Origin: Candidatus Xenobia bacterium
GTDB lineage: Bacteria > Vulcanimicrobiota > Xenobia > Xenobiales > QWHO01
Direction: 5' to 3'
Length of the DNA: 64,000 nt
Assembly: GCA_045863235.1 (NCBI GenBank)
Contig: BTUM01000009.1
Coordinates: 68,015 to 132,014, forward strand
Of this stretch, positions 16,763 to 50,879 are shown one piece after another. Under the pieces are notes generated by a model, which made no database searches, was not told the DNA's origin, and worked only from the letters and a program-made list of their open reading frames with translations. Positions within the stretch are counted from its first letter, which is position 1; each line of letters starts with the position of its first letter. The position numbers and the translations under genes are program-made.

Positions 16763-16847
16763 CGGGAGTGATTCGCAGCCCCGCAGGAAAGCCCTTGCCA
16801 CGAGCGAATGCCCCGCCCTACCTGCATTCAATCCGAAGGAGCGAGCT

Positions 16848-35334: not shown

Positions 35335-36495
35335 TCAACCGGCCAGCGCCAACCCGGCCTGGGCGCCGGCGCTTGCCCCCAGGCGGTTGCCCAGAACCCC
35401 GCCCACCACCAGGCCGACCGCGCCGCCGATAGGACCGGCCACCTGGTAACCCAGCATGGTCAGGCCCAGCGGGGCCGCGATGCCGCCCACCATGCCCCCC
35501 ACCGCTCCGCCCGCCAGGGCAGCGTAAGAAGCTCCGTCGCGAGCCCCCTTCTTCTGGGCGATCTCCAGGCCCCGGTGGGCGCCCAGAGCTCCCATTGCGA
35601 CAAACCCCAGCACCGGGTGCTTGTAGGAAAACATCAGGCTGGCCCCGGCCGCAAGCTGGGTGCCGCCGCTGACGGCGCGCATGGTGTCCTTGTTGGACAC
35701 GCCGCTGATCACTTCGCCCACCCCGTTGGCCGCCAGGCTGTAGGCCGCCACCTGGGTCAGCAGGCCCAGGCCCCAGCGCAGGTAAGGCACCTCCAGGCCG
35801 CGCGCGATGAGTTTGCCGGTCTCGCGAAACTCCTCGCGGTCCACAAAGGCCTGCATGAAGTTGGGCCGGTCGAGCCGCTCCATGGCGTCCATCTTCTCCT
35901 GGCTCACGTGGCGCAGGCGCTCGGGGTTGAGGCGATACTCAGCGTAGGTCTCGGCGAAGTCCTCCTGCTTGAGGGTTCCGGCGTAGCGCGAAACGTAGGG
36001 CGGGGCGCCGAACGGCTCGCTGGAGGAGTGCCCTCCGGTGATCACGCTGACCACCCCGCCCTCGTAGTCCCGGGTGTGACCGATCTCGTGCACGAGGGTG
36101 TAACGGAAGTTCTCGGGGTTGGTCATGCCGATGCCGGTGCGATTGATCTCGATGGAGTTGATGGCCGGGCGGGTGACCCCCAGCAGGTTGCTCGATCCCA
36201 GGCTCTCGCGCACCGAGATCGAGATCGGCCGGACGGCGTCGTACATCGGAAGCGAGTCCAGCGTCTGCCAGATCTGAGCCTTCTCAGCCGCGGTGCCGAA
36301 CACGCTGGGATAGATGAAGTTGGGCAGCGCTTTGTGGGTGTAAGCCAGCGCGTTGAGTCCGTCGCCCACCGCAGAGGAGAAGCGGTCCTTCAGGCTGGGA
36401 GGAGCCGGGGGCTCTTCCTCCTGGCTCGCGGGCGGCGGCTGGGGCGTTGCCAGTTGGCGCGGAAGGATGGGGGCGGGGGCGGCGGCGACGTGCAT
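35335..36495 (-). CDS. Zinc metallopeptidase (HExxH) with a C-terminal glycine-zipper region
   Basis: TLVHEIGH, YVSRYAG...EDFAETYAEY, GGAVGGMVGG...GGAVGLVVGGVLG. Confidence 0.78.
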   Translation of the reverse strand: MHVAAAPAPILPRQLATPQPPPASQEEEPPAPPSLKDRFSSAVGDGLNALAYTHKALPNFIYPSVFGTAAEKAQIWQTLDSLPMYDAVRPISISVRESLGSSNLLGVTRPAINSIEINRTGIGMTNPENFRYTLVHEIGHTRDYEGGVVSVITGGHSSSEPFGAPPYVSRYAGTLKQEDFAETYAEYRLNPERLRHVSQEKMDAMERLDRPNFMQAFVDREEFRETGKLIARGLEVPYLRWGLGLLTQVAAYSLAANGVGEVISGVSNKDTMRAVSGGTQLAAGASLMFSYKHPVLGFVAMGALGAHRGLEIAQKKGARDGASYAALAGGAVGGMVGGIAAPLGLTMLGYQVAGPIGGAVGLVVGGVLGNRLGASAGAQAGLALAG

Positions 36496-36538: not shown

Positions 36539-36567
36539 CTGAAAGAAAGCTGAAAGCGTTTCTGACA
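36539..36567 (-). promoter_or_regulatory. TTTCAG direct-repeat operator upstream of the metallopeptidase
   Basis: Minus strand TGTCAG-N6-TTTCAG-N5-TTTCAG. Confidence 0.55.
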
Positions 36568-36676
36568 TGTAACAGTCCCTCCGGCGTGGCCCGAATTCTG
36601 GTCGGTCAAACGACCTCTCCGTTGCCTCGAGCTGGGTGCTGGCCGGGGTTCTCGGCAATGGGAGCCGAGGGTGGGC

Positions 36677-38074
36677 TCAGTCGCGAACCGGAACGCGGAC
36701 TCCGTTGACCACCACGTAGCCGTCACGGGTCTCGACCCGGCCGGCCGGCAGGGGCTCGCTGGCAGGCAGGCGGGCGGTGTATTCCAGATGCCGATCGGTG
36801 AGTCGCACGAAACCCCGCTCGTCATAGCCATAGAGCTCTCGTCGCTGGCGGTCCTCGAAGAGAAGACGCCCATCGGCAGTCTCGCCGCGCAACTCGTACT
36901 CGTTGGCCGGCAACTCGATGCGCCGGGGGGGATCGTCCAGGCGGGTGACGGCCCGGTCGTGCCGCACCAGTCGCCCCTGCACGCTGGCCTTGGGACCGAA
37001 CTCGAGCACCTCGCGGCCCTCGGCGTTGAGACGCAAGATCTTGCCGCCCCCCATGTTCCAGAAGACCGTCCCTTTCGGGGTCACGTGGACATTGGGGCTC
37101 TCCCCCAGGCTCTCGCTCTCCCAGAGCTTGGAGCCATCGCTCGCGAGGCGTTGCAGGCATGACCTGCTGACGTACTGGGGAGCGAAGTGGTCCGGGTCCA
37201 TGCCGGGCCCAAAGCCCATGCCGCCACGAAATCGAAAGGCGTGGGGACCACGGATCTCGATGTTGGTGACCTCCTCGACCAGCACCTCACCCCTCTCCAG
37301 GGGCCAGAAACGACCGTGATAGTAGGAGGCCTTGCCTTCGGCCGGGCGAGCCTCCAGCTTGAGCCGGCCGCTCTCCTGGCCCCCCGGCCCGATCCGCACC
37401 AGCTCGTTGCCGGCCCGGAGCATCACCCCACCTTCCGGGGTGGCCACGGGGGGTTGTGCCCGCTCGGGGGAACCCTGCACCAGCGGCTTGCCGGACTTGT
37501 CGTAGGCCTCGAGCTTGCCTTCGGCCACCAGGTAGAGGCGCCCGGAGCTATCCTGGCAGGCTTCCGAGTAGACCTTTTTGGGGAAAGCGAGTTGGGAGCG
37601 CACCTGACCGTCGCTGCCAAAGCAAACCAGGCCGTCCTGGTTCTTGACGAGCAGGCTGTCCCCATCGGGGCTGACCGTCAGGCTGGAGATGGAGGCGAAG
37701 GGGGTGGGCGACTCCCAGGCGATGGAGCCATCCGGCTCCACCCGGGACAGGTAGGTGGCCTGGCGCGACTGGTAGGCCACGTAAATCTCCCCGCGAGGGC
37801 CCGACTTGAAGGCGACCGGGCGGTAGTCCTGCTGGTCCTTCTTGAGGTCGGCGGTGTGCACCAGCAAGCGGGTGGCCGAGCCCAGCTCCACGCCCTCGGA
37901 GCCGTTTAGGCGCCGCGCGTTGACATCTTCAGGAATTGGCGCGGCGCCGTTCAACAGATTGTCTGCAGTCCCGCCCGTTCTAATTCTGCACAGTTCAACG
38001 GGCGGGACTGTAGCGCTGGCCCTCACCAGGCGCTGGCGCCAGTAGTTGCCGTTGCTGCTCAGGGGCGAGATCAT
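36677..38074 (-). CDS. Beta-propeller-like hypothetical protein with the conserved C-terminal tail motif
   Basis: Repeats PDGSIAW, SDGSKLW; ends RVETRDGYVVVNGVRVPVRD; start ATG 38074 chosen from the upstream motif. Confidence 0.72.
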   Translation of the reverse strand: MISPLSSNGNYWRQRLVRASATVPPVELCRIRTGGTADNLLNGAAPIPEDVNARRLNGSEGVELGSATRLLVHTADLKKDQQDYRPVAFKSGPRGEIYVAYQSRQATYLSRVEPDGSIAWESPTPFASISSLTVSPDGDSLLVKNQDGLVCFGSDGQVRSQLAFPKKVYSEACQDSSGRLYLVAEGKLEAYDKSGKPLVQGSPERAQPPVATPEGGVMLRAGNELVRIGPGGQESGRLKLEARPAEGKASYYHGRFWPLERGEVLVEEVTNIEIRGPHAFRFRGGMGFGPGMDPDHFAPQYVSRSCLQRLASDGSKLWESESLGESPNVHVTPKGTVFWNMGGGKILRLNAEGREVLEFGPKASVQGRLVRHDRAVTRLDDPPRRIELPANEYELRGETADGRLLFEDRQRRELYGYDERGFVRLTDRHLEYTARLPASEPLPAGRVETRDGYVVVNGVRVPVRD

Positions 38075-38082
38075 GCGGCGAC

Positions 38083-38115
38083 ATCCTGCTCCGACTGGCT
38101 GAAAAAAACCTGAAA
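38083..38115 (-). promoter_or_regulatory. TTTCAG-N5-TTTCAG box plus -10-like hexamer
   Basis: TTTCAG-GTTTT-TTTCAG-N10-CAGGAT-N8-ATG. Confidence 0.62.
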
Positions 38116-38140
38116 AAGGGGACGGGTCGAAAGACGCTGA

Positions 38141-40057
38141 GTGCGACAGCTCGCCTTGCTGACCGACCGCAAGTTCTGGCCCCTGTTCTGGACTCAATTC
38201 CTGGGTGCTTTCAACGACAGCTTCCTCAAGAACGCGCTGGTCATCTGGATCACCTACCGCTCGGTCAGCGTGCTCGGCCTCGACCACCAGATGATGGCCG
38301 TGCTGTCGAGCGGGATCTTCATCCTGCCCTACTTCCTCTTCTCAGCCACCGCCGGCCAGCTGGCCGACAAGTATGACAAGGCCTTCCTGGTGCGCTGGAT
38401 CAAGACCATCGAGATCGGCCTGATGGGCCTGGCCACGGCCGGGTTCCTGCTGGCCGGCCACGGCAACCACGCTGGCATCGTGCTGTTGTTGGTGACCATC
38501 TTCCTGATGGGCACCCACTCCACGTTCTTCGGGCCCATCAAATACAGCATCCTGCCCCAGCTCGTAGGCCACGAGGCGCGGCTGGTGGGCGCCAACGCGC
38601 TGGTCGAGATGGGCACCAACCTGGCCATCCTGACCGGCACCCTGCTGGGCGGGGTGCTGATCGCCCTGGCCCAGGGCCCGGTGGTGGTCAGCCTGGCGCT
38701 GCTGGGGGTGGCCCTGCTCGGGCGGCTGGCCAGTCACTTCCTGGGCGCCACCGTGCCGGCCGTGCCCGACCTGAAAGTGGAGCTGAACCCCGCCCCGCCC
38801 ACCGTGCGCATCCTGGCCTTCGTCTATCCCCAGCGGGCTGTCTGGCTCTCCATCCTGGGCAACAGCTGGTTCTGGCTCTACGGCTCGGCCTTCCTGGCCC
38901 TCTTCCCCAGCTACGGCAGGGACACGCTCCACGCCGAGGAGCACGTGGTGACGCTCTTTCTCACCATCTTCTCGGTCGGTGTGGGGATCGGCTCGATCCT
39001 GTGCGAGAAGGTCAGCTTCGACCGGCTCGAGCTGGGTCTGGTGCCCTTCGGCTCCATCGGCATGACCGTCTTCGGCGTGGACCTGTTCTTTGCCGGGGCC
39101 CCCACCGCCGGCCTGGCGGGCCCCGACCAGCTGGTCAGCCTGGAGCAGTTCCTGGCCCTGCCGGCTTGCTGGCGCATCATGGTGGACTTGCTCGGTCTGT
39201 CTCTCTTCTCGGGCCTCTTTATCGTGCCGCTCTACACCCTGATGCAGCAACGCTCGGCCGACAGCCATCGCTCCCGGGTCATCGCGGCCAACAACATCGT
39301 CAACGCCGCTTTCATGGTGACCCAGACCCTGGTGGTGATGGCTCTGCTCCACCTCCAGTTCACCATTCCCCAGATCTTCTTGCTGCTGGGCATCCTCAAC
39401 GCCGTGGTGGCGGCTTACATCTACACCCTCTTGCCGGAGTTCTTCCTGCGCTTTTGCGTCTATCTGCTGGCCCACCTGATCTACCGGCTCAAGAGCTACG
39501 GGGTGGAGAAGATCCCCGAGGGCCCGGCCGTGCTGGTCTGCAACCACGTCACCTTCATCGACTGGTTCTTGATCGCCGCCGACGTGCGCCGCCCGGTGCG
39601 ATTCGTGATGGACCTGAGCTACGCCCGCATGCCCTTTCTGCAGGCCATCTTTCGGGACGCCAAGGTCATCCCCATCGCCTCCGCCAAACGGAGCCCGGAG
39701 GTGCTCGAGCGCGCCTTTGAGCGCATCAGCGAAGAGCTGGAGGCGGGCGAGCTGGTGTGCATCTTCCCGGAAGGCCGGCTGACCGACGATGGCCAGCTGA
39801 GCGAATTCCGACCCGGCGTCGAGCGCATCATTCAGAAAAACCCCGTCCCGGTGGTGCCTATGGCCCTGGGAGGCCTCTGGGGCAGCTTCTTCAGCCGCAA
39901 GGGGGGCCGCGCCCTGAGCCGCTTCCGCGGCCTGTGGAGCCGGGTCACCCTGGTGGTTGGCGACCCGGTGCCCCCCGAGGAGGTCTCGGCCGGCTCGCTC
40001 CAGGTCGTGGTGCAGGAGCTGGTGCACCAGGCCGAGGACAAGCTTCGACCCGGATAG
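38141..40057 (+). CDS. MFS transporter fused to a PlsC-type acyltransferase (LplT/Aas-like)
   Basis: TQFLGAFND, AGQLADK, FFGPIKYSILP; C-terminal NHVTFID and IFPEG. Confidence 0.92.
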   Translation: MRQLALLTDRKFWPLFWTQFLGAFNDSFLKNALVIWITYRSVSVLGLDHQMMAVLSSGIFILPYFLFSATAGQLADKYDKAFLVRWIKTIEIGLMGLATAGFLLAGHGNHAGIVLLLVTIFLMGTHSTFFGPIKYSILPQLVGHEARLVGANALVEMGTNLAILTGTLLGGVLIALAQGPVVVSLALLGVALLGRLASHFLGATVPAVPDLKVELNPAPPTVRILAFVYPQRAVWLSILGNSWFWLYGSAFLALFPSYGRDTLHAEEHVVTLFLTIFSVGVGIGSILCEKVSFDRLELGLVPFGSIGMTVFGVDLFFAGAPTAGLAGPDQLVSLEQFLALPACWRIMVDLLGLSLFSGLFIVPLYTLMQQRSADSHRSRVIAANNIVNAAFMVTQTLVVMALLHLQFTIPQIFLLLGILNAVVAAYIYTLLPEFFLRFCVYLLAHLIYRLKSYGVEKIPEGPAVLVCNHVTFIDWFLIAADVRRPVRFVMDLSYARMPFLQAIFRDAKVIPIASAKRSPEVLERAFERISEELEAGELVCIFPEGRLTDDGQLSEFRPGVERIIQKNPVPVVPMALGGLWGSFFSRKGGRALSRFRGLWSRVTLVVGDPVPPEEVSAGSLQVVVQELVHQAEDKLRPG

Positions 40058-40070
40058 AATCCTGGCCGCC

Positions 40071-40721
40071 ATGCGACGTTTTCTGATTGCCCTGCTGCTG
40101 CTGCTTCTGGCGCCCGTCCTGGCCCAGGCGCCCAGCCAGCTCATCCCCAACCTCACCCTGGCCAAGGAGCAGATCGAGCACTGGGTCAGCTCGGGCGAGT
40201 ACGCCCGCGAATGCGAGGCCGTCAACGCCCGGGCCCGGGCCTACCTGGAGGCCAACCTGACCGGGGTGAGACGGCCGGCCCTGGTGCTGGACATCGACGA
40301 GACCTCGCTGTCCAACTACCCGCTGATGCTCTCGGAGGACTTCGGCTTCGAGCAGGCCAGCTTCGACGCCTGGGTGGAGGCCGCCCAGACGCCGCCCATC
40401 CCCTCCACCCTGGAGCTCTTCCGCTATGCCGAAAGCCGCCAGGTGGCCTGCTTCTTCATCACTGGCCGAGGCGAGGCGCTGCGCGCCTCCACCGAGAAAG
40501 ACCTGCGCCACGGCGGCTACTCCGACTGGGAGGGGCTGTTTCTCAAACCCGCCGACTACCGCGAGAAGTCCATCGTGGGCTTCAAATCCGGAGTGCGCCG
40601 GCAGCTCACCGAGCAGGGCTACGAGATCCTGGTGAACGTGGGCGACCAGATGAGCGACCTCGAGGGCGGCTACGCCGAGAGCTTCTACAAGCTGCCCAAT
40701 CCCATGTACTACATTCCCTGA
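40071..40721 (+). CDS. Secreted HAD-superfamily acid phosphatase
   Basis: Signal peptide, LDIDETSL, FITGR, VGDQMSDL, KLPNPMY. Confidence 0.9.
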   Translation: MRRFLIALLLLLLAPVLAQAPSQLIPNLTLAKEQIEHWVSSGEYARECEAVNARARAYLEANLTGVRRPALVLDIDETSLSNYPLMLSEDFGFEQASFDAWVEAAQTPPIPSTLELFRYAESRQVACFFITGRGEALRASTEKDLRHGGYSDWEGLFLKPADYREKSIVGFKSGVRRQLTEQGYEILVNVGDQMSDLEGGYAESFYKLPNPMYYIP

Positions 40722-40725
40722 AGGC

Positions 40726-40758
40726 TTTCAGCCGCCTTTCAGGCGCTCGAGCGAGAAT
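40726..40758 (+). promoter_or_regulatory. TTTCAG-N5-TTTCAG box plus -10-like hexamer
   Basis: TTTCAG-CCGCC-TTTCAG-N10-GAGAAT-N6-ATG. Confidence 0.62.
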
Positions 40759-40764
40759 GGGGCG

Positions 40765-41403
40765 ATGATAAAGACTGATCGTCAGGCCCTGCTCACACGC
40801 CTGGCCGCTCTCGAGCGCCAGGGGATCTTCTGGGACTGCGACGTCTCCGCGGCCCGCAGCGACCTGGAGCTGTTCGAGCGCCACACCCCGCCCGAGGAGC
40901 CCCTGGAGCGCACCGCCGACCTCTACGAGACCCTGTTCCGGGATGAGAAAGAGCGCCATCGCGCGGTGGACCCCACCGGCCCGGCCCGCCGGGCGCTGGA
41001 GACGATTCACAGCTGCCTCGAGCCGGGCGAAGACCGGACCCGGGCGCTGGAGGCCTATCGCAAGCTCTGGAGCCACTCGCTCGAGCACGGACTCTACGAA
41101 ACCCCCGGCGAACCGGTGGATCTGACCGCTCGCAAACGCTTTCAGCTCATCGACGAGCACATGCTGGAGGGAGACGACCGCGTTCACTGCGTCCAGCAAT
41201 TTCTGGCCGACCCGCCCAACTTTGCCCAGCTCAAGCAGCAAGAAAGAGAGCGGCGCCAGCAGGAAGAGAGCGAGATGGCCGGGCGCTGGGAGCGCCTTCA
41301 GAAGCCCGAGGGGTGTACCTCTCTGGGCCGGCAGGAGGATTACCTCATCGTGGGCGGAAGCCGGGTGCCCTGCAAGCCCCATGGATCCTCTGAATCTTCT
41401 TGA
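40765..41403 (+). CDS. Hypothetical helical protein with the conserved C-terminal tail motif
   Basis: 212-aa ORF ending SLGRQEDYLIVGGSRVPCKPHGSSESS. Confidence 0.7.
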   Translation: MIKTDRQALLTRLAALERQGIFWDCDVSAARSDLELFERHTPPEEPLERTADLYETLFRDEKERHRAVDPTGPARRALETIHSCLEPGEDRTRALEAYRKLWSHSLEHGLYETPGEPVDLTARKRFQLIDEHMLEGDDRVHCVQQFLADPPNFAQLKQQERERRQQEESEMAGRWERLQKPEGCTSLGRQEDYLIVGGSRVPCKPHGSSESS

Positions 41404-41689
41404 AGTCAATGCGGCCGAGCTGGACGGGCTGGAAGCCGGTCCGGACGAGCTGATCGTAGTGGCTGCCACCTGGGGCCGCGGCTGCTCGCCCGAGTTGCTG
41501 CGCCGCCTGGAGCCCTTCCGCCGCCGCTCGGGCTATAACGGCACCCTGGTGGCTGTCGTGCCGCGCTCGCACGCAGGCGAGGTCCTGGGCCAGGATGCCC
41601 CCGAGCACCGCCCCGGGCAGGTCCCCATCTTGTCGCTGGCGTTCGGGCGCCGTCACCTGGACTGGCGTCCGGGCCTGCCTCCAGGCTGA
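41381..41689 (+). CDS. Small protein, possible degenerate thioredoxin fold
   Basis: LIVVAATWGRGC resembles VxFxATWCxxC; overlaps the upstream gene by 23 nt; followed by a terminator. Confidence 0.5.
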   Translation: MDPLNLLEVNAAELDGLEAGPDELIVVAATWGRGCSPELLRRLEPFRRRSGYNGTLVAVVPRSHAGEVLGQDAPEHRPGQVPILSLAFGRRHLDWRPGLPPG

Positions 41690-41700
41690 CGGTCCTATCC

Positions 41701-41742
41701 AGAGAAAGAGGAGCCCGGCTCCCACCGGGCTCCCTTTTTCTC
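41701..41742. terminator. Bidirectional intrinsic terminator
   Basis: Stem GGAGCCCGG/CCGGGCTCC flanked by AGAGAAAGA and CTTTTTCTC, between convergent genes. Confidence 0.78.
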
Positions 41743-41755
41743 GACCTGGCCCCAC

Positions 41756-42355
41756 TCAGGGAATGTAGAAGTACCAGGTGTTATCGATGGACTTGCCGCT
41801 CTCGGCACTGGCCGTCACCCTCGCGCTGTGCTGGCCAGACTTCATGTCGGCCCCAGGCTGACAGCTCACCTGGGAGTTGCTGACCTTGCACATTCCCGTC
41901 ACATCCTGTCCGTCCACGTAGAGACGCACCGTGGTGGTCTTGACCGGATCGTAGAAGGTGGCCCCGATGACCGGGCGACGCGAGCTGGCGGTCGCTCCAT
42001 TGGCCGGGGTGGGATTGAAACTTTGCCCCGTGAAAGAGAAAGACCAGTTCAGGTCGAAAGTCGTCGCCCCGGAAGCTGCCCTGGCAGTCACCCGGACCTT
42101 GTGCTTCCCAGGCGTCAGCTGCTGGGGAATGAAGCGCACTTGAGAGTCGGTGCAAGTCGCCCGGCTGGTAATGTCGGCCCCGTTCAAGTAGATGCGAGAG
42201 GCGCTGGGAATGACCGGCACGAGAAAGGTCACACCGATCTCGGCCTGGGGATTGTCCACCGTGGTTCCGTCGGTAGGGGTCACGTTGGCCCCCTGGGCCA
42301 GGGCGAACCCGGAAAGGCAAGCCAGCAGGAACAGCGTGGGGAAGAGACGTCGCAA
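41756..42355 (-). CDS. Secreted protein with two Ig-like beta-sandwich repeats
   Basis: AAGGAGG RBS, TTG start, signal peptide ending ALA; two repeats P.DG.T....I...F...V.....R.Y.NG.DIT...G.H..RVTA...W.F. Confidence 0.75.
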   Translation of the reverse strand: MRRLFPTLFLLACLSGFALAQGANVTPTDGTTVDNPQAEIGVTFLVPVIPSASRIYLNGADITSRATCTDSQVRFIPQQLTPGKHKVRVTARAASGATTFDLNWSFSFTGQSFNPTPANGATASSRRPVIGATFYDPVKTTTVRLYVDGQDVTGMCKVSNSQVSCQPGADMKSGQHSARVTASAESGKSIDNTWYFYIP

Positions 42356-42490
42356 GAGTGAGGTCCTCCTTGGAATGTGTCCAGCGACGTTCGTGTCAAG
42401 CAGCCCCGTCCCTCTGAGGCAGGTCAAGGGGCCTGGCCCGGGAGCAAAAGTCGGGTCTTCTGTTTCAAGCCCGCTGTATGCTATACTTTG

Positions 42491-42937
42491 ATGGCGGTCA
42501 AGTTCTCGCAACCGAACCTTCTCCAGGAGCCTGCCAGCTTGAGCTACTCTCCCCGTGTCAAGCAAAATGCCATCCGTGGCGCCAAAATCGGAGCCATCAG
42601 CACCGGCTGCGCTGCTTTCTTGACCGGGACGATGCTCTGTATCGTGCACCGCCTCCCCATTCCACCCCTGGCAATTACCGAGTTCGGGATCCTCTTCGGG
42701 GGACTGCTGGGTGCCGGAGCCGGCATTCTCTGCAGCGAGCCCCGGGGACGATTGTCGCTCCTGGGCATCGTGGGCGGCCTGCTGGCTGGAGCGGTCGTAG
42801 CCCTTCCCCTGGAAGGTCCAGGTGATCCGCTGGGCGTGCTGCGCATCGCCCTGCTGGGCTCGCTGATCGGTTGGCGCCTTGCGCTCAATGCGGCCCGAGC
42901 CCGCCTCAACACCCCCGCCTGGACCCCGATGAGCTAG
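42491..42937 (+). CDS. Small four-TM membrane protein
   Basis: Gly-rich hydrophobic helices; TGcTATACT extended -10 just upstream. Confidence 0.6.
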   Translation: MAVKFSQPNLLQEPASLSYSPRVKQNAIRGAKIGAISTGCAAFLTGTMLCIVHRLPIPPLAITEFGILFGGLLGAGAGILCSEPRGRLSLLGIVGGLLAGAVVALPLEGPGDPLGVLRIALLGSLIGWRLALNAARARLNTPAWTPMS

Positions 42938-43172
42938 AAGTCCGGCCGCAAACCCCCATGTGGTGTCGGAGGGAACCTCCGCCACCACAAGATGTTGTAG
43001 GCGGCCGGACTTCTAGCACAATATGTTGGGCGTCGCGCAGCCGGAAAACTGTGTCAAGGGGGTTTCCGGCTGCGCTCCTAGCCTAGGAGCCCGGCCGCAA
43101 CCCCCCTCGTGGACGCGGAGGGGAACCTCCACGTCCACAATATTGTGCAGGCGGCCGGGATCCTGGCACAAT
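42933..43172 (+). repeat. Tandem pair of ~85-nt long hairpins (149-nt period) flanking a third hairpin; candidate structured RNA or DNA element
   Basis: Unit 1 42933-43017 and unit 2 43083-43166 share an architecture with compensatory changes; middle 13-bp stem 43035-43075. Confidence 0.75.
42985..43031. promoter_or_regulatory. Tandem NrdR-box-like sites
   Basis: ccaCAAgATgTTGtag (42985-43000) and gcaCAAtATgTTGggc (43016-43031) fit acaCwAtATaTwGtgt, 31 bp apart. Confidence 0.5.
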
Positions 43173-43271
43173 CAACACGATCGAGCACGGCCTTCCGCCC
43201 GCGTCTCTAAAAACGCTCTCTGTTCCCACCCGGGAGGAGGAGTCCTGCCTTGCTTGAGGAATTTTCTTCCT

Positions 43272-43285
43272 CGAACACATATTCG
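43272..43285. promoter_or_regulatory. LexA (Gram-positive-type SOS) box-like site
   Basis: CGAAC-ACAT-ATTCG, one mismatch to CGAAC-N4-GTTCG. Confidence 0.45.
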
Positions 43286-43359
43286 TGCTCAACCGGGCGG
43301 CGCACGACTCCGACTCGCAACCTGTCGGTTTCGCGCGCGACGAGGGATGGGGAGGAACG

Positions 43360-44316
43360 ATGCGGATCGGTCTGGACCTGGGCACTTCTACCGTGCGGCT
43401 GGTGGAAGGTCGTAAGCTGGCGGTGCTGTGCCAGCCGAACCTGCTGTTGCAGGATCAGCACTTTCCCGAAGTTCTGGCGGGAGGCGAAACGGCCCGCAAG
43501 ATGGTGGGCCGCACCGCCCAGCACTGGAGCGCCTGTCGACCCGTGGTGCGCAGCCGGCTGGGGTCTCCCCAGGCAGCCCGCCTGCTGATCAAGCCCATGA
43601 TGGAGCAGGCCGGGGGCTGGCGGCGCTTCGGACGGCCCCGCGTGATGGTGGCCACCCCCCTCTCCTCCAGTCCCACCGAGCGTCAGGCGGTGGCCGACCT
43701 GCTGCGCCAGATGGGCATCAAGGAAGTGGAAGGGGTGGCCACCCCGCTGGCCGCCGCCCTGGGCGCGGTGCCGACCGGTCACGAGCCGCCCCCGCTGGTA
43801 CTGGTGATGGGAGCCAGCGTCACCGAAGTGGCCCTGGTTTCGCGCGGCCTGGTGGTCTCAGACTTCCTGCAGCTGGGTGGCCAGACGCTGGACCAGGCGA
43901 TGGTGGCGCACCTGCGCCGCCAACACGGCCTGGAGGTGAGCCTGGAGGCGGCCGAAGAGGTGAAGCGCTCGGTGGGCTCGGCCGACCCGGCCCACGACCA
44001 GCTGACCTGCCGCGTCTACGGGCGCGAGCTGGAGAGCCGGCTGCCCCACTCGGTCGTGCTCACCGGCGAAGAGGTGCGCTCCGTGCTGGCCCCGCCGCTG
44101 AGCGAGGTTCTGCGCCTGGTGCGAGAGGTGCTCGACCGCACTCCGCCGGCGATGAGCAGCGACGTGCTCCAACGCGGACTGACCCTGACCGGCGGGGGAG
44201 CCCACCTCATCGGGCTGGACAGCTACCTGGCCCGCGAGACGGGCCTGCCCGTGCAACTGGCCGAGGAGCCGGAAAATGCGGTGGTGCGAGGCACTCTGGG
44301 AGAATTTGCAGCATGA
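43360..44316 (+). CDS. mreB: Divergent MreB/Mbl-like actin homologue
   Basis: GGAGG RBS; IGLDLGTS, A.KMVGRT, TERQAV, PLAAALG, LGGQTLD, AEEVK, TPPAMSSD, LTGGGA. Confidence 0.85.
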   Translation: MRIGLDLGTSTVRLVEGRKLAVLCQPNLLLQDQHFPEVLAGGETARKMVGRTAQHWSACRPVVRSRLGSPQAARLLIKPMMEQAGGWRRFGRPRVMVATPLSSSPTERQAVADLLRQMGIKEVEGVATPLAAALGAVPTGHEPPPLVLVMGASVTEVALVSRGLVVSDFLQLGGQTLDQAMVAHLRRQHGLEVSLEAAEEVKRSVGSADPAHDQLTCRVYGRELESRLPHSVVLTGEEVRSVLAPPLSEVLRLVREVLDRTPPAMSSDVLQRGLTLTGGGAHLIGLDSYLARETGLPVQLAEEPENAVVRGTLGEFAA

Positions 44317-46172
44317 TCGCCTCTGAGAGCATTGAGCTTCCCCTGGCCCGAGCGGCCACGGCCTGCCAGGCCAGCTGGCTGGAATCGGTCAGCCATCACT
44401 ATGGCGCCGTGAAGGTGGACGCCGGAATCTTGCTGGGCAGCACCCGGGTGCACATCGAGACGCGTGGCAAGGCGGTGGTGCAACCCAGCCGGGTGGCGGT
44501 GGATCCGCGCGGCAAGGTGCTGGCCGTGGGCGAGGTGGCCGAGCGCATGGAAGGCCGCGAGCCCACCGAGGTGCGGGTGCTGCACCCGGTGCGCGAAGGA
44601 GCCGTGGTGGAGCCCGAGCTGGCCCGCCAGCTGGTTTCCCGCCTGCTCAGTCCGGGGGCCCACCTGGCCGCCGCCATCCCGGGCGATCTCTCGGCCGTGG
44701 AGCGAGCCGCCCTGCAGAGCGTGCTCCAGTCGGCCGGGGCCCGCCAGGTCTACCTGGTGGATCAGGCCATCCTGGCCTCGGTAGGTGCCGGCCAGCGCTT
44801 GCTGCAGCCGGAGGCCTGCCTGGTGGTGCACCTGGGCTGCGAGACAGCCGAGATGGCCGTGTTCGCGCTGGGCAGCCGCCTGTGGGGAACCACCTTGCGC
44901 TGGGGTACCAGCCATATGGACCGCGCCCTCATCGAGGAGGTGCGCCGCAACCACCAGATCGTGCTGGACACCCGGGTGGCCGAGCGGCTGCGCCTGGAAC
45001 TGGGGCACGCCCTGGAGGCCGAGGGCTCGCTGGAGGTCAGCGGCCAGGGCCTGGAGGACGGTCAGCCCGCCCCGCTCACCCTGCAGGCCGAAGAGGTCTG
45101 CTCGGTGCTGCGCCCCTTCCTCGAGCAGTTGTCCGAGCAACTGTGCCAGGTGCTGGCCCAGGTCAGCCCGGAAGCGCTGGGCGACCTGATCGCCGGCGGC
45201 GGCGCGCTGACCGGCCCGGGAGCTCGCCTCAAAGGACTGGGCGTCTTTCTCAGCCAGCGCTCGCGCCTGCGACTGGTGCCGGCCGACAGTCCGGGCGAAG
45301 CGGTGGCGCGCGGCCTGGGTGAGCTGATCCGCCAGAAAGCCCTGCGCCAGGTGCTGTTGGCCCGGCGCGAGGCCCGGCCCACCGTGAAGGCGCCCCGCTC
45401 GGGCTGGCTGGTGGCCGGCCTGGCCCTGGCCACCTCGGCCCTGTTGACGGTGGGCTACCTGGGTGAGCTGCGAGCCGGCCAGGCCAATCCGGTCGAGAAG
45501 GCGCTGGGCCAGGTGCTCGATCCGGCCGTCGCCCGGGCCAGCGATCTGGTGGAGCCGGCCAGCCTGGAGCAAGACCGCACGGCCGCCGTGCTGAGCGAGA
45601 AGGACCGTCAGATTCGCGAGCTGGCCTCCCAGAACCAGCGCCTGGAAGGGCTGCTCAAGGCTCGCAACGAGCTGTCCACGGCCCGGCCGGTCGCGGCCCG
45701 GGTGGTGGCTCGCGATCCGGGAGGCTGGATGTCGTTCTGCACCCTGGACGTGGGCTCGCGCGAAGGGATCCGGGTGGGCAACCCGGTCACCACCGCCGAA
45801 GGGCTGGTGGGCCAGGTCACCGAGGTGCGCCCGGATACCTGCCGGGTACGCCTGCTGACCGATTCGCGCGCGGTGGCCGCGGGCCGAGTGAGCCAGCGCA
45901 AGGCCTCGGGCGTGTTGCAGGGGGTGGGGGCCAGCAATCTCGAGCTGCGCTACCTTGACCCCGACGCCCGCGTGAAAAGCGGAGACCTGGTGGTCACCAG
46001 CGGCCAGGACGGGCAGTTCCCGGAAGGGCTCAAGGTGGGCCGGGTGCAGTCGGTGCGGCTGGTGGCCGAAGCCAACTATCAGGCGGCCGTGGTGGCGCCG
46101 CTGGCTCCCCTGGACAGCATGCGCACCGTGCTGGTGCTCCAAACCGGAAGTCGCGCCGTCAGCCTGCGATGA
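44313..46172 (+). CDS. mreC: MreB-like domain fused via a TM helix and coiled coil to MreC
   Basis: N-half has QPSRVAVD, MEGREP, HPVREG, VERAAL, AERLR, LTGPGARL. C-half has ARVVARDP, LDVGSREGI, GLVGQV, VVTSGQDGQFPEGLKVG. One uninterrupted frame. Confidence 0.85.
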   Translation: MIASESIELPLARAATACQASWLESVSHHYGAVKVDAGILLGSTRVHIETRGKAVVQPSRVAVDPRGKVLAVGEVAERMEGREPTEVRVLHPVREGAVVEPELARQLVSRLLSPGAHLAAAIPGDLSAVERAALQSVLQSAGARQVYLVDQAILASVGAGQRLLQPEACLVVHLGCETAEMAVFALGSRLWGTTLRWGTSHMDRALIEEVRRNHQIVLDTRVAERLRLELGHALEAEGSLEVSGQGLEDGQPAPLTLQAEEVCSVLRPFLEQLSEQLCQVLAQVSPEALGDLIAGGGALTGPGARLKGLGVFLSQRSRLRLVPADSPGEAVARGLGELIRQKALRQVLLARREARPTVKAPRSGWLVAGLALATSALLTVGYLGELRAGQANPVEKALGQVLDPAVARASDLVEPASLEQDRTAAVLSEKDRQIRELASQNQRLEGLLKARNELSTARPVAARVVARDPGGWMSFCTLDVGSREGIRVGNPVTTAEGLVGQVTEVRPDTCRVRLLTDSRAVAAGRVSQRKASGVLQGVGASNLELRYLDPDARVKSGDLVVTSGQDGQFPEGLKVGRVQSVRLVAEANYQAAVVAPLAPLDSMRTVLVLQTGSRAVSLR

Positions 46173-46588
46173 AGTGGTGGCTCGCCCCTGCCCTGGTGGC
46201 CGCCGCCCTGATTCAGGGCGGCTGGGGCGTGCCGCTGGACCTGGTCTTGCTGCTCACGATCGCGGCCGCCCGGCGCCGGCTGGTGCCGGGCGGAACCCTG
46301 GTGGGCCTGCTCGGTGGACTCTTGCTGGGGGCGGTGCGGGGGATTGGCTCGGGCCCGCTCTCGGCTCTCTACGTGGCCTGTGGCTGGCTGGCGGGAGCCT
46401 GGTTCGAGCGCGGCCTGGGCACCGGTGCCCGGGCCATGCTGCTGGGAGCCGGCCTCTTCAGCCTGGTGGTGGCCGGGGACACGGTGCTGCGCCTCACCCT
46501 GGGCCAGCCTCTGGAGCTCAGTCAGTTTGCCAGCGCCTGGCGCATCCTTCTCGTGCACGCCGCCCTGACCTGGTGGGTGGCCCGGTGA
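46169..46588 (+). CDS. mreD: Rod shape-determining protein MreD (divergent)
   Basis: Small multi-TM protein with DLVLL and GLLGGLL, between mreC and pbp2. Confidence 0.7.
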   Translation: MKWWLAPALVAAALIQGGWGVPLDLVLLLTIAAARRRLVPGGTLVGLLGGLLLGAVRGIGSGPLSALYVACGWLAGAWFERGLGTGARAMLLGAGLFSLVVAGDTVLRLTLGQPLELSQFASAWRILLVHAALTWWVAR

Positions 46589-46589
46589 C

Positions 46590-48368
46590 GTGACCTCGCG
46601 CCTTCGTCTGGCCCTGCTGGCGGTCCTCGCACTGACGGTACTGGCCGCCCTGGCAACCCGGATGGTGGACATGCAATGGCGCCACGGCTCGGAGTATGCC
46701 GCCGCGGCCCGACGCTCGAGCGTGGTCATCGAGCCGGTGCCGGCGCCGCGCGGGCGACTGCTCGACCGCCGGGGACGTTTGCTGGTATCCAACGAGCCCT
46801 GCTTTCAGCTCACAGTCTTCCCCGCCGAGATGCGCGACCGCAAACTGACCGCCCGGCGTCTGGCCGAGGCCCTGGAGGTCAAGCCCGAGCACCTTTCCGC
46901 CCGCCTCCAGAAGGCTCTCCAACAGGCCCCGCTGGAGAAGCTGGTGCTGCGCCGCTCGCTCACCCCCGGCCAGATCAGTCGCCTCCTGCTGGTGACCCCC
47001 GAGCTGCCCGGCACGGCCGTCGAGGTAGGAGCCCGCCGGCGCTACCTGGCCGGTCGCCTGGCGGCCCACGTGCTGGGGACCATGGGCGAAATCGACGCCC
47101 ACGAGCTGCCCACCCGGCGCAAGCTGGGCTATGCGGCCGGCGATCCGATGGGGCGCAGCGGGCTCGAGCGCCAGTATGACTTCCTGCTGCGGGGAAAGAA
47201 GGGCCAGCGCCACCTGGCCGTGGATGTGCTCGGTCGCACCGTGCGCGTGCTCGAGGTGGTGGATCCGGTGCCCGGCGCCGATCTCCACCTGACGCTGGAC
47301 CGCAAGATTCAGGAGACCGCCCAACGAGCCCTGGCCCAGACCCTGGCCGAGCTGCGGGTGCTCAACCAGGAGGACTCCTCCGGCGCGGTGGTGGTGATGG
47401 AGGCCTCCACGGGACGCATCCGGGCCCTGGTCAGCCTGCCCGACTTCGACCCCGCCCTGTTTGCCCGCGGCATCAAGCCGCGTGATCTGGACGCGCTCTA
47501 CAGCGATCCGCGCCACCCGCTGCTGAGCCGCGCCTATCAGAGCTCGTTCTCGCCCGGCTCGACCTTCAAGCTGATCACCGGCAGCGCGGCTCTGCAAGAG
47601 AAGCTGTGCACCTCGGGCAGCGTGTTCGTCTGCGGCGGCAGCTATATGGGAGCGAGCTGCTTCGTGACCTCGGGTCACGGCGGCATCGGCTTCGTGGACT
47701 CGCTGGCCCACTCGTGCGACGTGGTTTACTACCGACTGGGCGATCAGCTGGGCATCGACCGGCTGAGCCGCTACTGCGCCGCCTTCTCCCTGGGTAAGCC
47801 GACCGGGCTGGACGTGCCGGCCGAGACCGGAGGCCTGCTGCCCACCGCCGCCTGGAAGGAGCGCGAGCTCGGGGAGGAGTGGTATCCGGGCGACACCGTC
47901 AACATGTCCATCGGGCAGGGATTCTTGCTGGTCAGCCCGCTCCAGATGGCGGTCGCCACCGCGGCCGTGGCCAACGGGGGACAGGTGCCCCGCCCCTACC
48001 TGGTAGAAAGAGCCGTTGGGCCCAACGGACGCATCCTGCATCGGGGCCGTCCCAAGCTGCGCAAGCTGCCGGTCAGCAAGCACCACCTTGCAGCCGTGCG
48101 CCAGGGAATGCGCGGAGCGGTGGAGTACGGCACCGGCGTGGCAGCCGACGCCCCCCAGGTGGCGGTGGCCGGCAAGACCGGCACGGTGGAATCCTTCGCC
48201 AACGTGAACAATCCCCACGGTCGCAACCACGTCTGGTTCGTCTCGTATGCCCCGGCCGACAAACCCGAGCTGGTGGTGGTGGTGTTCCTGGAGAAGTCGG
48301 GCGGCTACGGAGGCTCCCTGGCCGCCCCCATCGCTCGCAAAGTCTACGATTTCGTGTATCCGCCATGA
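46590..48368 (+). CDS. mrdA: Penicillin-binding protein 2 (class B transpeptidase)
   Basis: APRGRLLDRRG, GRSGLE, PGSTFK (SxxK), SCD, KTGT. Confidence 0.95.
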   Translation: MTSRLRLALLAVLALTVLAALATRMVDMQWRHGSEYAAAARRSSVVIEPVPAPRGRLLDRRGRLLVSNEPCFQLTVFPAEMRDRKLTARRLAEALEVKPEHLSARLQKALQQAPLEKLVLRRSLTPGQISRLLLVTPELPGTAVEVGARRRYLAGRLAAHVLGTMGEIDAHELPTRRKLGYAAGDPMGRSGLERQYDFLLRGKKGQRHLAVDVLGRTVRVLEVVDPVPGADLHLTLDRKIQETAQRALAQTLAELRVLNQEDSSGAVVVMEASTGRIRALVSLPDFDPALFARGIKPRDLDALYSDPRHPLLSRAYQSSFSPGSTFKLITGSAALQEKLCTSGSVFVCGGSYMGASCFVTSGHGGIGFVDSLAHSCDVVYYRLGDQLGIDRLSRYCAAFSLGKPTGLDVPAETGGLLPTAAWKERELGEEWYPGDTVNMSIGQGFLLVSPLQMAVATAAVANGGQVPRPYLVERAVGPNGRILHRGRPKLRKLPVSKHHLAAVRQGMRGAVEYGTGVAADAPQVAVAGKTGTVESFANVNNPHGRNHVWFVSYAPADKPELVVVVFLEKSGGYGGSLAAPIARKVYDFVYPP

Positions 48369-49468
48369 AGACGCGTACCCTGCTGATATCCTCCAGCCTG
48401 GCCCTGTGGCTGCTCGGCTGCCTGGTGCTCTTCTCGGCCACCCGCTGGCAGGGGAGCGCCGGATTGCTCTTGCGCCAGCTGGCCGCGGGAGCGGTGGGGC
48501 TGAGCCTGGGATTGGCGCTGGCACGGCTGGAGCTGAGCCGGTTGCGCCAGCTGACCTGGCCCCTGTACGGGGCCGGACTGGTCAGCCTGGCGGTCGTGCT
48601 GGCGGCCGGCACCTCGGCCAAGGGGGCCCAGCGCTGGCTCTCTTTAGGCCCGCTGGGCACCATCCAGCCCTCCGAGCCGATGAAGCTTCTCCTGGTGCTG
48701 GCCCTGGCCCACCTCCTTACGCGCCTCCCGGCCCGTCGAGCGGGGGGCTTTCTGCTGGCCTGGGTGCTGACCGGAGTGGCCTTCTTGATGGTGGCCGCCC
48801 AGCCCGACCTGGGCACCGGACTGGTGCTGGTGGCCGTCGCCTTCGGGATGCTGTGGGTGGCGGGCGCCTCGCCCGTCTACCTGGCGGGTGTGGCCGTGGG
48901 AGGTCTGGGAGCGTTGACCTTCGTGCTCAAGGAGTACCAGCGCGACCGCATCATGGTCTTCTTGCACCCGGATCTCGATCCCATGGGCCAGGGCTACAGC
49001 CTCATGCAGTCCCTGACGGCCATCGGCTCGGGCCAAGTGTTCGGCCGGGGGCTCTTCGCCGGCCACCTGACCCAGCAGGGCTTCGTGCCCGAGAACTGGA
49101 CCGACTTTGCCTTTACCGTGGTGGGCGAGGAGCTGGGCCTGGCCGGCAGTCTGGGCCTGCTGCTACTGTGTGCCCTGCAACTGGGCAGCCTGCTGGTCAT
49201 CGCCTGGCGCAGCCAGGACTATCCTCGCCTGCTGGCCACGGGTGTGGCCGTCATGCTGGGCTTCCAGCTCTCGGTCAACCTGGCCATGACCATGGGCATG
49301 GCCCCCGTGGTCGGGATCCCCCTGCCCCTGGTCAGCTACGGGGGCAGCGCACTGATCACCAACCTGGCCGCCCTGGGCCTGGTCGCGGGTCTGGCCCGCC
49401 GAAGTCCACCCCGTCAGGCCACCGTGCACCCCCTGCCCGTGCGCCAGCGACTGCCCCTGGCCGGATGA
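48365..49468 (+). CDS. rodA: SEDS glycosyltransferase RodA
   Basis: GAQRWL, IQPSEPMK, QPDLGT, YQRDRI, PENWTDF, GEELG, GIPLPLVSYGGS. Confidence 0.94.
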   Translation: MKTRTLLISSSLALWLLGCLVLFSATRWQGSAGLLLRQLAAGAVGLSLGLALARLELSRLRQLTWPLYGAGLVSLAVVLAAGTSAKGAQRWLSLGPLGTIQPSEPMKLLLVLALAHLLTRLPARRAGGFLLAWVLTGVAFLMVAAQPDLGTGLVLVAVAFGMLWVAGASPVYLAGVAVGGLGALTFVLKEYQRDRIMVFLHPDLDPMGQGYSLMQSLTAIGSGQVFGRGLFAGHLTQQGFVPENWTDFAFTVVGEELGLAGSLGLLLLCALQLGSLLVIAWRSQDYPRLLATGVAVMLGFQLSVNLAMTMGMAPVVGIPLPLVSYGGSALITNLAALGLVAGLARRSPPRQATVHPLPVRQRLPLAG

Positions 49469-49490
49469 GCCGTTCCAAGATTCCCACTGG

Positions 49491-49523
49491 CTTTAGGTTT
49501 GTTTCAGCTCTCTGAAATAGGCT
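49491..49523 (+). promoter_or_regulatory. TTTCAG repeat box plus -10-like hexamer
   Basis: CTTTAG-GTTTG-TTTCAG-N10-TAGGCT-N9-ATG. Confidence 0.55.
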
Positions 49524-49532
49524 GGAGAAGCC

Positions 49533-50879
49533 ATGAGAATTGCCGAAATCGCCCAGCCGGGTTTCTTCCAGTATCGTCCCAACGCGGCCAGCAGTTCGTC
49601 CGAGGGCGACCGGTTCGAGCCGAGCGGCCCCCAGGAGCCCGTCCGGCTGACCCAGGCGATGCTCGGCGAACTGATGCGCACCAACGTGGGGACCGACCAC
49701 CTGGTGGCCTGGAAGCTGCAACTGCCCGGGGGCCTGGTGCGCGACAATCCCACCTTCGGCCCCGACGGCACGGTCTACGTGCCCCAGTCGGGCGGAACCA
49801 CCCTGATCAACAGCAATGAAGGTCGCATCATCGACCACCACAAATTCGAGCAGCCCTGCGAGGCGGCCGCGGCCATGGCCCCCAACGGCGACCTGCTGCT
49901 GCCCCACAAGGGGCTGACCCGCTATCGTCCCGACATGTCGGAGGTCTGGAATCAAGACAAGGTTCCCTACGGCAACCAGCCACCACTGCTCGGACCCGAC
50001 CAGAGCACCTACGTAGCGGGCTACAGTCCCAAAGGGACGGTCACCCGGGTGACCCCGGACGGGCAGATCGCCTGGTCGACGGAGGTTCGTCGCGGCACAG
50101 GCGACCACATGGATACCCCGATGTCGCTCAGCCCCGATGGAAAGCGCCTCTACGCTGGCGGAGAAGGGATCCTGTTTGCCCTCGACCCGGCCTCGGGCAA
50201 GGTGCTGTGGGGTAAGGGGAAGGCCCATTCCACCGTGCAGGTGGGCTGCCGCCCCCTGGTGACCCCGCGCGACCAGGTGGTGGTCTCTGGGATGAGCAAC
50301 CAGGTGACCTGTTTTGACAGCGACGGCAAGGAGGTCTGGAAATGGTCGGCCCGCTTCGAGAAGCGCAGCGACGAGCTGACCCGCAAAGAGCGCGAGGAGG
50401 CTTTCGGTTGGGGCAACGGGCTGATCGAGTCGAGCCCCACGCTCACCAGGGATGGGCAAACCATCCTGGTGGCTGGTGACGAAAAGTTGCTGGCCCTGGA
50501 TCTCGATGGCAACCTGCGCTGGAAGAAGGAGCTGCCGGGAGCGAGCCTGCTTCGCGACGAGGCCATCCAGGTCGGGCCGGACGGGAGCATCTACGTCAAG
50601 TCAGACCACAATACCCAGGTCTGGGCCTTCAACGAGCAGGGAGAGCAGATCTGGCATTATGCCAACCACAGCCCTAGCGGCTCGGCCTTCATGGCCGTCA
50701 ATCAGGACACGGTGGTCTTCGTCACCCGCGAGGGAAGTGCCGTGGCCCTGCGCCAGGACGCGCTGCGCAAGCGTATCGAAGAGGTGGCTGCCCGCCCGGA
50801 CGATTCGCCCAGCCAGATCCAGGTGGGCAACGGCGTGGTCACCGTGGGCGGAGTGCGCGTCAAGACGCGTGCCCGCTGA
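49533..50879 (+). CDS. PQQ-like beta-propeller protein with the conserved C-terminal tail motif
   Basis: Repeats GPDGTVYV, ALDPASGKVLW, ALDLDGNLRW; ends QIQVGNGVVTVGGVRVKTRAR. Confidence 0.82.
   Translation: MRIAEIAQPGFFQYRPNAASSSSEGDRFEPSGPQEPVRLTQAMLGELMRTNVGTDHLVAWKLQLPGGLVRDNPTFGPDGTVYVPQSGGTTLINSNEGRIIDHHKFEQPCEAAAAMAPNGDLLLPHKGLTRYRPDMSEVWNQDKVPYGNQPPLLGPDQSTYVAGYSPKGTVTRVTPDGQIAWSTEVRRGTGDHMDTPMSLSPDGKRLYAGGEGILFALDPASGKVLWGKGKAHSTVQVGCRPLVTPRDQVVVSGMSNQVTCFDSDGKEVWKWSARFEKRSDELTRKEREEAFGWGNGLIESSPTLTRDGQTILVAGDEKLLALDLDGNLRWKKELPGASLLRDEAIQVGPDGSIYVKSDHNTQVWAFNEQGEQIWHYANHSPSGSAFMAVNQDTVVFVTREGSAVALRQDALRKRIEEVAARPDDSPSQIQVGNGVVTVGGVRVKTRAR

Follow-up and report, generated by a model that had tools for sequence, protein, structure and literature searches.

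A TTTCAG direct repeat as a predicted activator site before tail-bearing and other genes of a Xenobia bacterium

Three genes in a 64,000-nucleotide stretch of a Candidatus Xenobia bacterium (GenBank assembly GCA_045863235.1, contig BTUM01000009.1, positions 68,015 to 132,014 of the forward strand; hereafter the window) encode proteins that end in a common C-terminal tail, and each is preceded by a form of the same direct repeat, TTTCAG-N5-TTTCAG, which we call the box. This raises the question of what the box controls and what kind of protein reads it. A sequence-only reading of the window had taken the box as the mark of a regulon of tail genes. We followed it through the whole assembly (8.36 Mb, 66% GC, 97.6% complete; the window lies on contig 9) and through 40 related genomes, and the resulting pattern suggests a broader role, namely that the box controls the cargo of a flagellum-type protein exporter through one winged-helix activator of the OmpR/PhoB or SARP type, a reading to which we give a probability of about 0.6. 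Its two parts differ in strength: we are confident in the prediction that the box is a winged-helix activator site and, given such a site, consider it likely that the targets are export cargo. That one activator serves the tail-tagged proteins, as was also proposed before, we infer by analogy with known sites.

Geometry of the box and its link to tail genes

The window holds four box matches at up to two mismatches, three of them exact; shuffled sequences give a mean of 2.12 and reach four in 19 of 100 cases, so that the window count is at chance level, and the box was therefore tested genome-wide. There, TTTCAG-N5-TTTCAG occurs in 56 exact copies with a spacer of five, and in 0–3 copies at each of the 19 other spacers between 0 and 19. 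A nAnnnT hexamer stands exactly 10 nucleotides past the box (N10) in 33 of 56 exact, 87 of 122 one-mismatch and 136 of 380 two-mismatch boxes, compared with at most 8, 8 and 21 boxes, respectively, at other offsets. These spacer-5 and N10 peaks bear out the fixed PhoB/OmpR-type geometry first claimed from the window alone. A weight matrix built over the box and the -10 finds 413 sites in the genome. The intergenic matrix sites number 348, compared with 7–12 in five third-order Markov sequences, a null that was preferred to a shifted-spacer control, which is weak, as strong boxes score high without the rest. A good -10 stands at N10 in 249 of 308 strong boxes, and its consensus, TAnnnT, is of the primary-sigma type. 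An ATG lies 6–10 nucleotides past the hexamer at 219 of the 413 sites, with at most six sites at any other offset, and a same-strand start lies within 250 nucleotides of 384. We classed 251 sites as predicted leaderless and 151 as leadered, while 8 lie inside genes and 3 have no gene; gene starts are approximate here, since the 7,170 genes were called with our own hexamer model. The sites are not copies of each other (flanks more than 70% identical to another site's at 2 of 413), nor are they housekeeping promoters (a box before 1 of 62 tRNA genes).

This layout recalls several known regulatory sites. Tandem direct repeats with an 11-bp period, the downstream one ending 10 bp before a primary-sigma -10 and replacing the -35, are what is found genome-wide, and this is the arrangement of an OmpR/PhoB-type class II activator site. 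The 11-bp period is also that of SARP sites; here the gap to the -10 is 10 when counted from the end of the hexamer, the repeat boundary being definition-dependent. The HilA box of Salmonella pathogenicity island 1 consists of two TTTCAT-like hexamers 5 nucleotides apart, read by an OmpR/ToxR-type regulator of type III secretion; it lies upstream of the -35 and drives apparatus operons. In use, the box resembles the tts box, the site of the regulator TtsI in rhizobial type III secretion. In the tts consensus, too, the -10 follows at N10, the half-sites end in AG one helical turn apart with 10 nucleotides to the TA of the -10, and the site marks genes for type III cargo (PMC3009519). Unlike the tts box, with its GTCAG half-site and tens of targets, the box here has the half-site TTTCAG, both halves well conserved, some 380 targets and mostly predicted leaderless starts; moreover, tts boxes precede the rhc operons (locus context in PMC3973906), whereas the apparatus operons here are unboxed and the exporter, unlike rhizobial type III secretion, is flagellum-type. 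From its sequence, the box would appear to work like the TtsI/tts system without being a member of it, given the different half-site and the unboxed apparatus. The pho box of E. coli has the same N10 geometry, with direct repeats of 11-bp period, an A/T-rich linker and a TAN3T -10 located 10 bp downstream (PMC1906773), but the half-site is another and the targets here are not the phosphate-uptake set. The KdpE site likewise has two 6-bp repeats starting with TTT and a 5-bp A/T-rich spacer (PMC3264566), yet the KdpE-like regulator of this lineage is kept, with a nearly unchanged recognition helix, in genomes without the box. SARP sites, too, have a distance of 11 bp between repeats and place the 5' repeat over the -35, but their repeats end 8 bp before the -10, compared with 10 here (PMC4393881). 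The box is probably a regulatory site of a known type, unusual in its size and in the features that it ties together.

Is it also a mark of tail genes? A C-terminal tail profile picks 187 proteins (internal controls matched 0 of 6,394), and 122 of the 187 tail genes have the box in front of them, compared with 253 of 6,937 others, an odds ratio of about 50; it is thus far from equally common before unrelated genes, and the idea that the DNA lends independent support to the protein motif holds. Restricting the count to genes with at least 60 nucleotides of free upstream DNA leaves 90 of 140 tail genes boxed compared with 211 of 3,834 others. The 187 tail proteins fall into 91 families, and because 65 of these have a boxed member and 44 of 68 tail singletons are boxed, the link between box and tail is real and not an effect of paralogy. 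The regulon proposed for the tail genes therefore stands as a strong enrichment but not as an identity, as the tail is missing from 255 of 379 boxed genes and an immediately preceding box from 63 of 187 tail genes. The box is not tail-specific: it marks about 380 genes, two thirds of them without a tail.

Among the 63 unboxed tail genes, 11 sit behind a boxed gene on the same strand, and 17 have CGAA 6–12 nucleotides before the start with a conserved AGG 21 nucleotides upstream, a promoter that we take to be sigma-H-like and that is also found on many unrelated genes. As a class (AGG, 18 nucleotides, CGAAT, 8–12 nucleotides, start codon) it is leaderless and covers about a hundred genes in the genome, with examples in the window before genes 6512–6886 and 16025–16855; a SigH-like gene lies on contig 103.

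In the window, the three tail-gene promoters, including their -10 hexamers and ATG distances, and the fourth box copy are where the sequence-only reading had placed them. The promoters and their genes are as follows.

38099..38115, minus strand: exact box TTTCAG-N5-TTTCAG with a matrix score of 33, retained by 3 of 3 same-genus orthologues
38083..38088, minus strand: predicted -10 hexamer CAGGAT, N10 past the box and 8 nucleotides before the ATG, predicted leaderless start
36677..38074, minus strand: tail gene of 465 residues, ATG at 38074, weak PQQ-like (pyrroloquinoline quinone) beta-propeller without a hydrophobic signal peptide
36680..36742, minus strand: C-terminal tail of the 465-residue protein
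40726..40742, plus strand: exact box, score 25; 2 of 3 orthologues retain it whole, and the third has lost the first half-site
40753..40758, plus strand: predicted -10 hexamer GAGAAT, N10 past the box and 6 nucleotides before ATG 40765
40765..41403, plus strand: tail gene of 212 residues, no Pfam or NCBIfam family
49491..49507, plus strand: box, first half-site CTTTAG (two mismatches), score 26, kept in 3 of 3 orthologues
49518..49523, plus strand: predicted -10 hexamer TAGGCT, N10 past the box and 9 nucleotides before ATG 49533
49533..50879, plus strand: tail gene of 448 residues, PQQ-like beta-propeller without a signal peptide

In the same-genus genomes, eight of nine orthologue promoters of these genes score 21–33, the remaining one lacking the first half-site.

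Boxed proteins and a flagellum-type exporter

If the box is not specific for the tail, what do its targets share? Pfam scans covered 67 of the 187 tail proteins, of which 51 have no match, 15 are beta-propellers and one has an InhA-like domain, and 96 of the 255 boxed proteins without a tail, of which 58 have no match. The 38 matches in the latter set include acyltransferases, monogalactosyldiacylglycerol (MGDG) synthases, a lipid desaturase, peptidases, a lytic transglycosylase, amylases, a nuclease, a haem peroxidase, an S-adenosylmethionine (AdoMet) decarboxylase, a thioredoxin-reductase-like protein, a major facilitator superfamily (MFS) transporter, an HrpB-type helicase, a PilZ protein, a glycerophosphodiesterase, a histidine phosphatase and a phosphodiester glycosidase.

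The common denominator seems to lie at the N-terminus. A hydrophobic, signal-like stretch is found in 1% of boxed tail proteins and 7–11% of boxed proteins without a tail, compared with 26–29% of controls, as judged by a crude hydrophobicity rule that gives a statistical property and no proof for single genes. Ile or Val occupies position 3 in 62%, 51% and 34% of the boxed sets versus 19% and 14% of controls, and a scarcity of acidic residues is common to tailed and untailed boxed proteins. Taken statistically, this is an N-terminus of the type III substrate kind, that is, non-hydrophobic, acid-poor, rich in Ser, Pro and Thr, and without a Sec signal. Furthermore, a classifier trained on N-termini separates boxed from unboxed leaderless-type genes with a cross-validated area under the curve of 0.79, compared with 0.60 for mid-protein sequence, and several boxed enzymes of cytoplasmic type carry extra N-terminal residues relative to their unboxed copy (for example +62, +75, +39 and +33).

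Some individual targets may be mentioned. An 825-residue YidD-clostripain fusion (L085:1367-3844) is boxed and predicted to be leaderless. Other boxed genes carry domains common in eukaryotes, namely UVB_sens_prot, a lipid desaturase, an animal haem peroxidase and WD40 (L079:9826-11382, L065:9629-10609, L067:14660-17116 and L056:11423-12616), which may be a hint at a eukaryotic target.

A possible route out of the cell is encoded on contig 27, where a flagellum-type locus spans FlgB to FlhA. It comprises FlgB, FlgC, FliE, FliF, two FliG, FliH, FliI, FliJ, FliK and a rod/hook-type protein, and further FliM, two FliN, FliO, FliP, two FliQ, FliR, FlhB and FlhA; two more rod-type genes lie on contig 74 together with a sigma factor fragment. 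Flagellin and MotA were not found in the 97.6% complete genome, so that the locus does not look like that of a motile flagellum. FliP occurs in 38 of the 40 relatives and flagellin in 8, of which 7 encode an additional FliP; the widespread system is therefore distinct from a patchily distributed true flagellum. Other routes fit less well: the type VI secretion system was set aside because VipB was not found in the genome, and type II secretion, for which a locus exists, because the targets have no signal peptides. Three secretin matches lie on contigs other than that of the exporter locus, two of them in contexts like those of type II secretion or type IV pili.

The exaptation of the flagellum into non-flagellar type III secretion has been described (PMC3459982). 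The locus falls outside the definition given there by Abby and Rocha, as FlgB, FlgC and FliE are kept and the locus has no secretin; FliG is kept as well, and all four are missing from the Myxococcales systems. The exporter is probably closest in kind to the basal body of Buchnera, which likewise has a basal body and export gate without filament or motor and has been proposed to export non-flagellar proteins (PMC13468123). Unlike Buchnera, the bacterium studied here has a large genome, hundreds of predicted cargo genes, a multi-copy 81-residue helical gene and stand-alone FlhA-domain paralogues.

Three tandem copies of this 81-residue gene lie four genes past flhA, and the third is boxed both here and in three same-genus genomes. 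Relatives of the gene were found in 34 of 40 genomes. We suggest that its product is a filament (needle-like) subunit. The apparatus promoters themselves have no box (best matrix score 11.8), so that the earlier suggestion of a regulon including the secretion apparatus fails for the apparatus proper and survives for one copy of a filament-like subunit. Instead, GTTAAC-N5-GTTAAC stands in the promoters of flgB and of the rod/hook-type gene (contig 27, 79436–79452 and 69615–69631), a member of a second repeat family, GTTMAY-N5-GTTMAY, with 46 genomic copies at spacer 5 and 0–15 at others. The second repeat is also seen before a SARP-type regulator and many orphan genes, and once in the window before gene 50899–51477. 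The genome further encodes five stand-alone proteins made of the cytoplasmic part of FlhA (L002, L003, L004, L005 and L006), one of them behind a boxed gene. Two are fusions with FliG-N domains and one is a fusion with an FlhB-like piece; all five might possibly act as cargo-sorting adaptors.

How could these parts work together? By the precedent of pho, tts and SARP sites, two activator protomers would occupy the -35 position in head-to-tail order and bring RNA polymerase with the primary sigma factor to a promoter that has a -10 only, and transcripts would mostly begin at the predicted leaderless start codon. The targets would then leave through the flagellum-type gate by means of their N-terminal leader, and the tail would serve roughly a third of them as an additional tag that varies between lineages. 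Control may be a two-tier cascade, with GTTMAY-N5-GTTMAY on the apparatus operons and the TTTCAG box on the cargo. It is tempting to go further, although we hold this only tentatively and at less than even odds, and to speculate that in this class the flagellum became an injection machine without motility, by a path separate from that of the classical injectisome, with such a cascade and some 380 mostly leaderless cargo genes. The cargo regulator could then be a member of the SARP subclade discussed below, found both under the GTTMAY repeat and inside a boxed operon, and the tail on a third of the cargo could be a second address. If this were true, the box would be a DNA barcode that lists one of the largest bacterial effector repertoires known.

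The lineage is uncultured and has been proposed to be predatory or host-associated, and most boxed or tail proteins belong to no known family. The box ties together an N-terminal leader, a C-terminal tail and a filament-like protein beside a flagellin-less exporter, and as such it offers a way to list, without any experiment, a co-regulated and probably exported set across three families, to fix the true start codons of about 250 genes and to make the attack on, or manipulation of, other cells by these bacteria testable without culture. We found no description of the box or the exporter in this lineage in the literature, in a search that subscription papers largely fell outside.

Distribution, competing explanations and the candidate activator

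Among the 40 relatives, 21 are box-positive and 19 box-poor. The box with its -10 occurs 27–68 times per genome in 4 of 4 same-genus genomes, 5–49 times in 16 of 16 sister-family genomes and six times in the single class-level relative, compared with 0–2 per genome for control patterns; of the 19 genomes of a fourth family, which are mostly reduced, 5 have a single copy and 14 have none. Kin genomes are not independent, and these counts are to be read as patterns and not as tests. No excess of a diverged box was seen in the fourth family in 787 kb searched (400 kb from one genome and 387 kb from a further two). The tail profile has at least 110–150 matches in the same-genus genomes, 17 in the class-level relative and 3–4 in five genomes of the fourth family. 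Because the box is present in 16 of 16 sister-family genomes, in which the tail profile gave no true match, the box predates this form of the tail and has been kept more steadily. An outright absence of the tail from the sister family would be too strong a statement, given that 3 of 18 complete boxed genes in one of its genomes end, by eye, in an acidic tail variant (0 of 13 in another). The usual tail is found on one of four complete boxed genes of the class-level relative. Moreover, of 18 boxed genes in two sister-family genomes with a match here, 8 have a boxed gene as their best match, where 379 of 7,170 would be the expectation.

Several observations weigh against control of exporter cargo by the box. 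The -10 at N10 is missing from 52 of 308 strong boxes. Boxed N-termini are not longer than those of unboxed paralogues (21 longer and 33 shorter of 72 pairs, a comparison that used the longest possible start of the unboxed partner), and many unboxed paralogues carry a similar leader; the leader set is therefore wider than the regulon. Some boxed genes encode a signal peptide, or a product that seems to be cytoplasmic or membrane-bound. In the fourth family, FliP persists in 17 of 19 genomes and the 81-residue gene in 19 of 19, with 0–1 box matches per genome, and the exporter therefore does not need the box. The 81-residue gene, in turn, was sought without success in 6 of 6 genomes of a genus rich in the box, its product has no Pfam or NCBIfam match, and the structure model, built from an alignment of 16 sequences, is a single helix without a PDB match in a Foldseek search. 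Finally, no candidate activator fully matches the distribution of the box; the candidates discussed below are all missing from the 19 box-poor genomes, but these are reduced and without many genes.

The main rival explanation, which we regard as rather unlikely but serious, is that the box is a real activator site of a lifestyle programme, such as an attack or host-contact phase, while export is set separately by leader and tail. A mixed set of boxed genes without a tail, with its AdoMet decarboxylase, MFS transporter, HrpB-type helicase, PilZ protein, acyltransferases, MGDG synthases and thioredoxin-reductase-like protein, is what such a programme might contain, and both the leader on unboxed paralogues and the loss of the box where the exporter is kept would fit it; marine relatives among the Eremiobacterota have been proposed to be predators with distinct expression states (PMC9259500). 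It fits less well with the depletion of signal peptides and the leader pattern in tailed and untailed targets alike, with the N-terminal extension of several cytoplasmic-type enzymes over their unboxed copies, and with a box on the filament-like gene beside the export locus.

The repeat could instead be read by an alternative sigma factor or by a protein without a winged helix. The genome has 20 matches to sigma-70 region 2, and the imperfect fit of every winged-helix candidate speaks in the same direction; we nevertheless consider this improbable, because the -10 is of the primary-sigma type, the half-sites lie one helical turn apart and end 10 nucleotides before it as in the pho and tts layouts, and the actual alternative-sigma promoter class of the genome (AGG, 18 nucleotides, CGAA) is a different one.

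Still less probable is a Pho regulon for phosphate starvation with a lineage-specific pho box. The geometry equals that of the pho box, and the targets include the glycerophosphodiesterase, histidine phosphatase, nuclease, MGDG synthases and phosphodiester glycosidase, but there are some 380 targets, mostly orphans and beta-propellers without a signal peptide, and the explanation was rejected as PhoU was not found in this genome, PstS was not found in 9 of 9 genomes searched, and a pattern search for PstB was also empty. Lack of PstS and PhoU is unusual for bacteria of 6–9 Mb, and it is compatible with feeding on other cells.

That the sites belong to a repeat element scattered over the genome, or are an artefact of its composition, as the chance-level window count and the other short repeat families of this genome might suggest, is a negligible possibility, refuted by the spacer specificity, the excess over the Markov null, the unrelated flanks, the fixed orientation and distance to starts, and the conservation in orthologue promoters and across families.

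If the box controls exporter cargo through a winged-helix activator, which protein might this be? The genome has 26 Trans_reg_C matches and about 20 SARP-type winged-helix proteins. Three OmpR-type candidates occur in 13, 16 and 17 of the 21 box-positive genomes and in 0 of the 19 box-poor ones, in searches that scored only about 70 candidates per genome, so that a candidate may have been overlooked in large genomes. OmpR-type candidate regulators of this genome are located on contigs 22, 15, 8, 58 and 6. The same contrast is seen for a SARP subclade whose members have a recognition helix in common: it was found in 17 of 21 box-positive and 0 of 19 box-poor genomes, and the four box-rich genomes in which it was missed belong to a single genus. 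Its two proteins in this genome are encoded on contigs 101 and 31. One member follows a boxed gene at a distance of 14 bp, a layout also seen in two relatives, and another lies behind the second repeat, GTTMAY-N5-GTTMAY. This subclade is our leading candidate for the activator.

Other regulators were considered and set aside. A response regulator on contig 28, flanked by two boxed genes, was rejected as a class-wide activator, its orthologues being limited to three same-genus genomes. A YycF-like and a KdpE-like regulator are not favoured, being present in all nine relatives sampled, including five box-poor ones; both are candidates for the reader of the GTTMAY repeat. The YycF-like response regulator (L007, contig 4) is 78–97% identical across the class, and the KdpE-like regulator with its PAS histidine kinase (L012/L343, contig 14) is kept even in genomes of 2.4 Mb. 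No autoregulatory box was seen on the canonical OmpR genes.

The fourth box and other features of the window

Four further features of the window bear on the box.

36539..36555, minus strand: fourth box, exact; conserved CCGCGA at N10 in place of a -10
36562..36567, minus strand: TGTCAG, 12 bp upstream of the fourth box, off the 11-bp phase, probably not part of the box
35335..36495, minus strand: boxed gene without a tail, 386 residues, HExxH motif
1..834, plus strand: 3' part of a 483-residue tail gene that starts 617 nucleotides before the window; upstream box absent

The fourth copy matches the box exactly and is conserved in three relatives, but it departs from the class II arrangement of the others, since CCGCGA replaces the -10 both here and in 3 of 3 relatives. 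TGTCAG had been taken for a third half-site of this copy; its phase argues otherwise, and no peak at -11 is seen genome-wide (6 of 413 sites). The gene downstream had been called a toxin-like metallopeptidase. Its protein has the HExxH motif but no Pfam or NCBIfam match that would bear out the toxin-like label; its N-terminus is rich in Pro and Ala, and its C-terminal half is hydrophobic and rich in Gly and Ala. Inspection upstream of the truncated gene at 1–834, which had been suggested as a check, showed no box.

Elsewhere in the window, no box at threshold was found at two sets of conserved genes, which we take, from their translated starts, to be groES-groEL (13963–15943) and a mreB-mreC-mreD-pbp2-rodA-like operon (43360–49468).

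Finally, two short repeat families are represented. A repeat element of about 106 bp (37907–38013), with 72 BLAST matches in the genome, is inserted in frame near the start of the 465-residue tail gene, adding a net 35 codons, and is missing from contigs of four RNA runs and from two same-genus genomes. Parts of the window occur in seven public RNA runs in all, each time as assembled contigs. A second family, at 42930–43210, has dozens of copies in the same-genus genomes.

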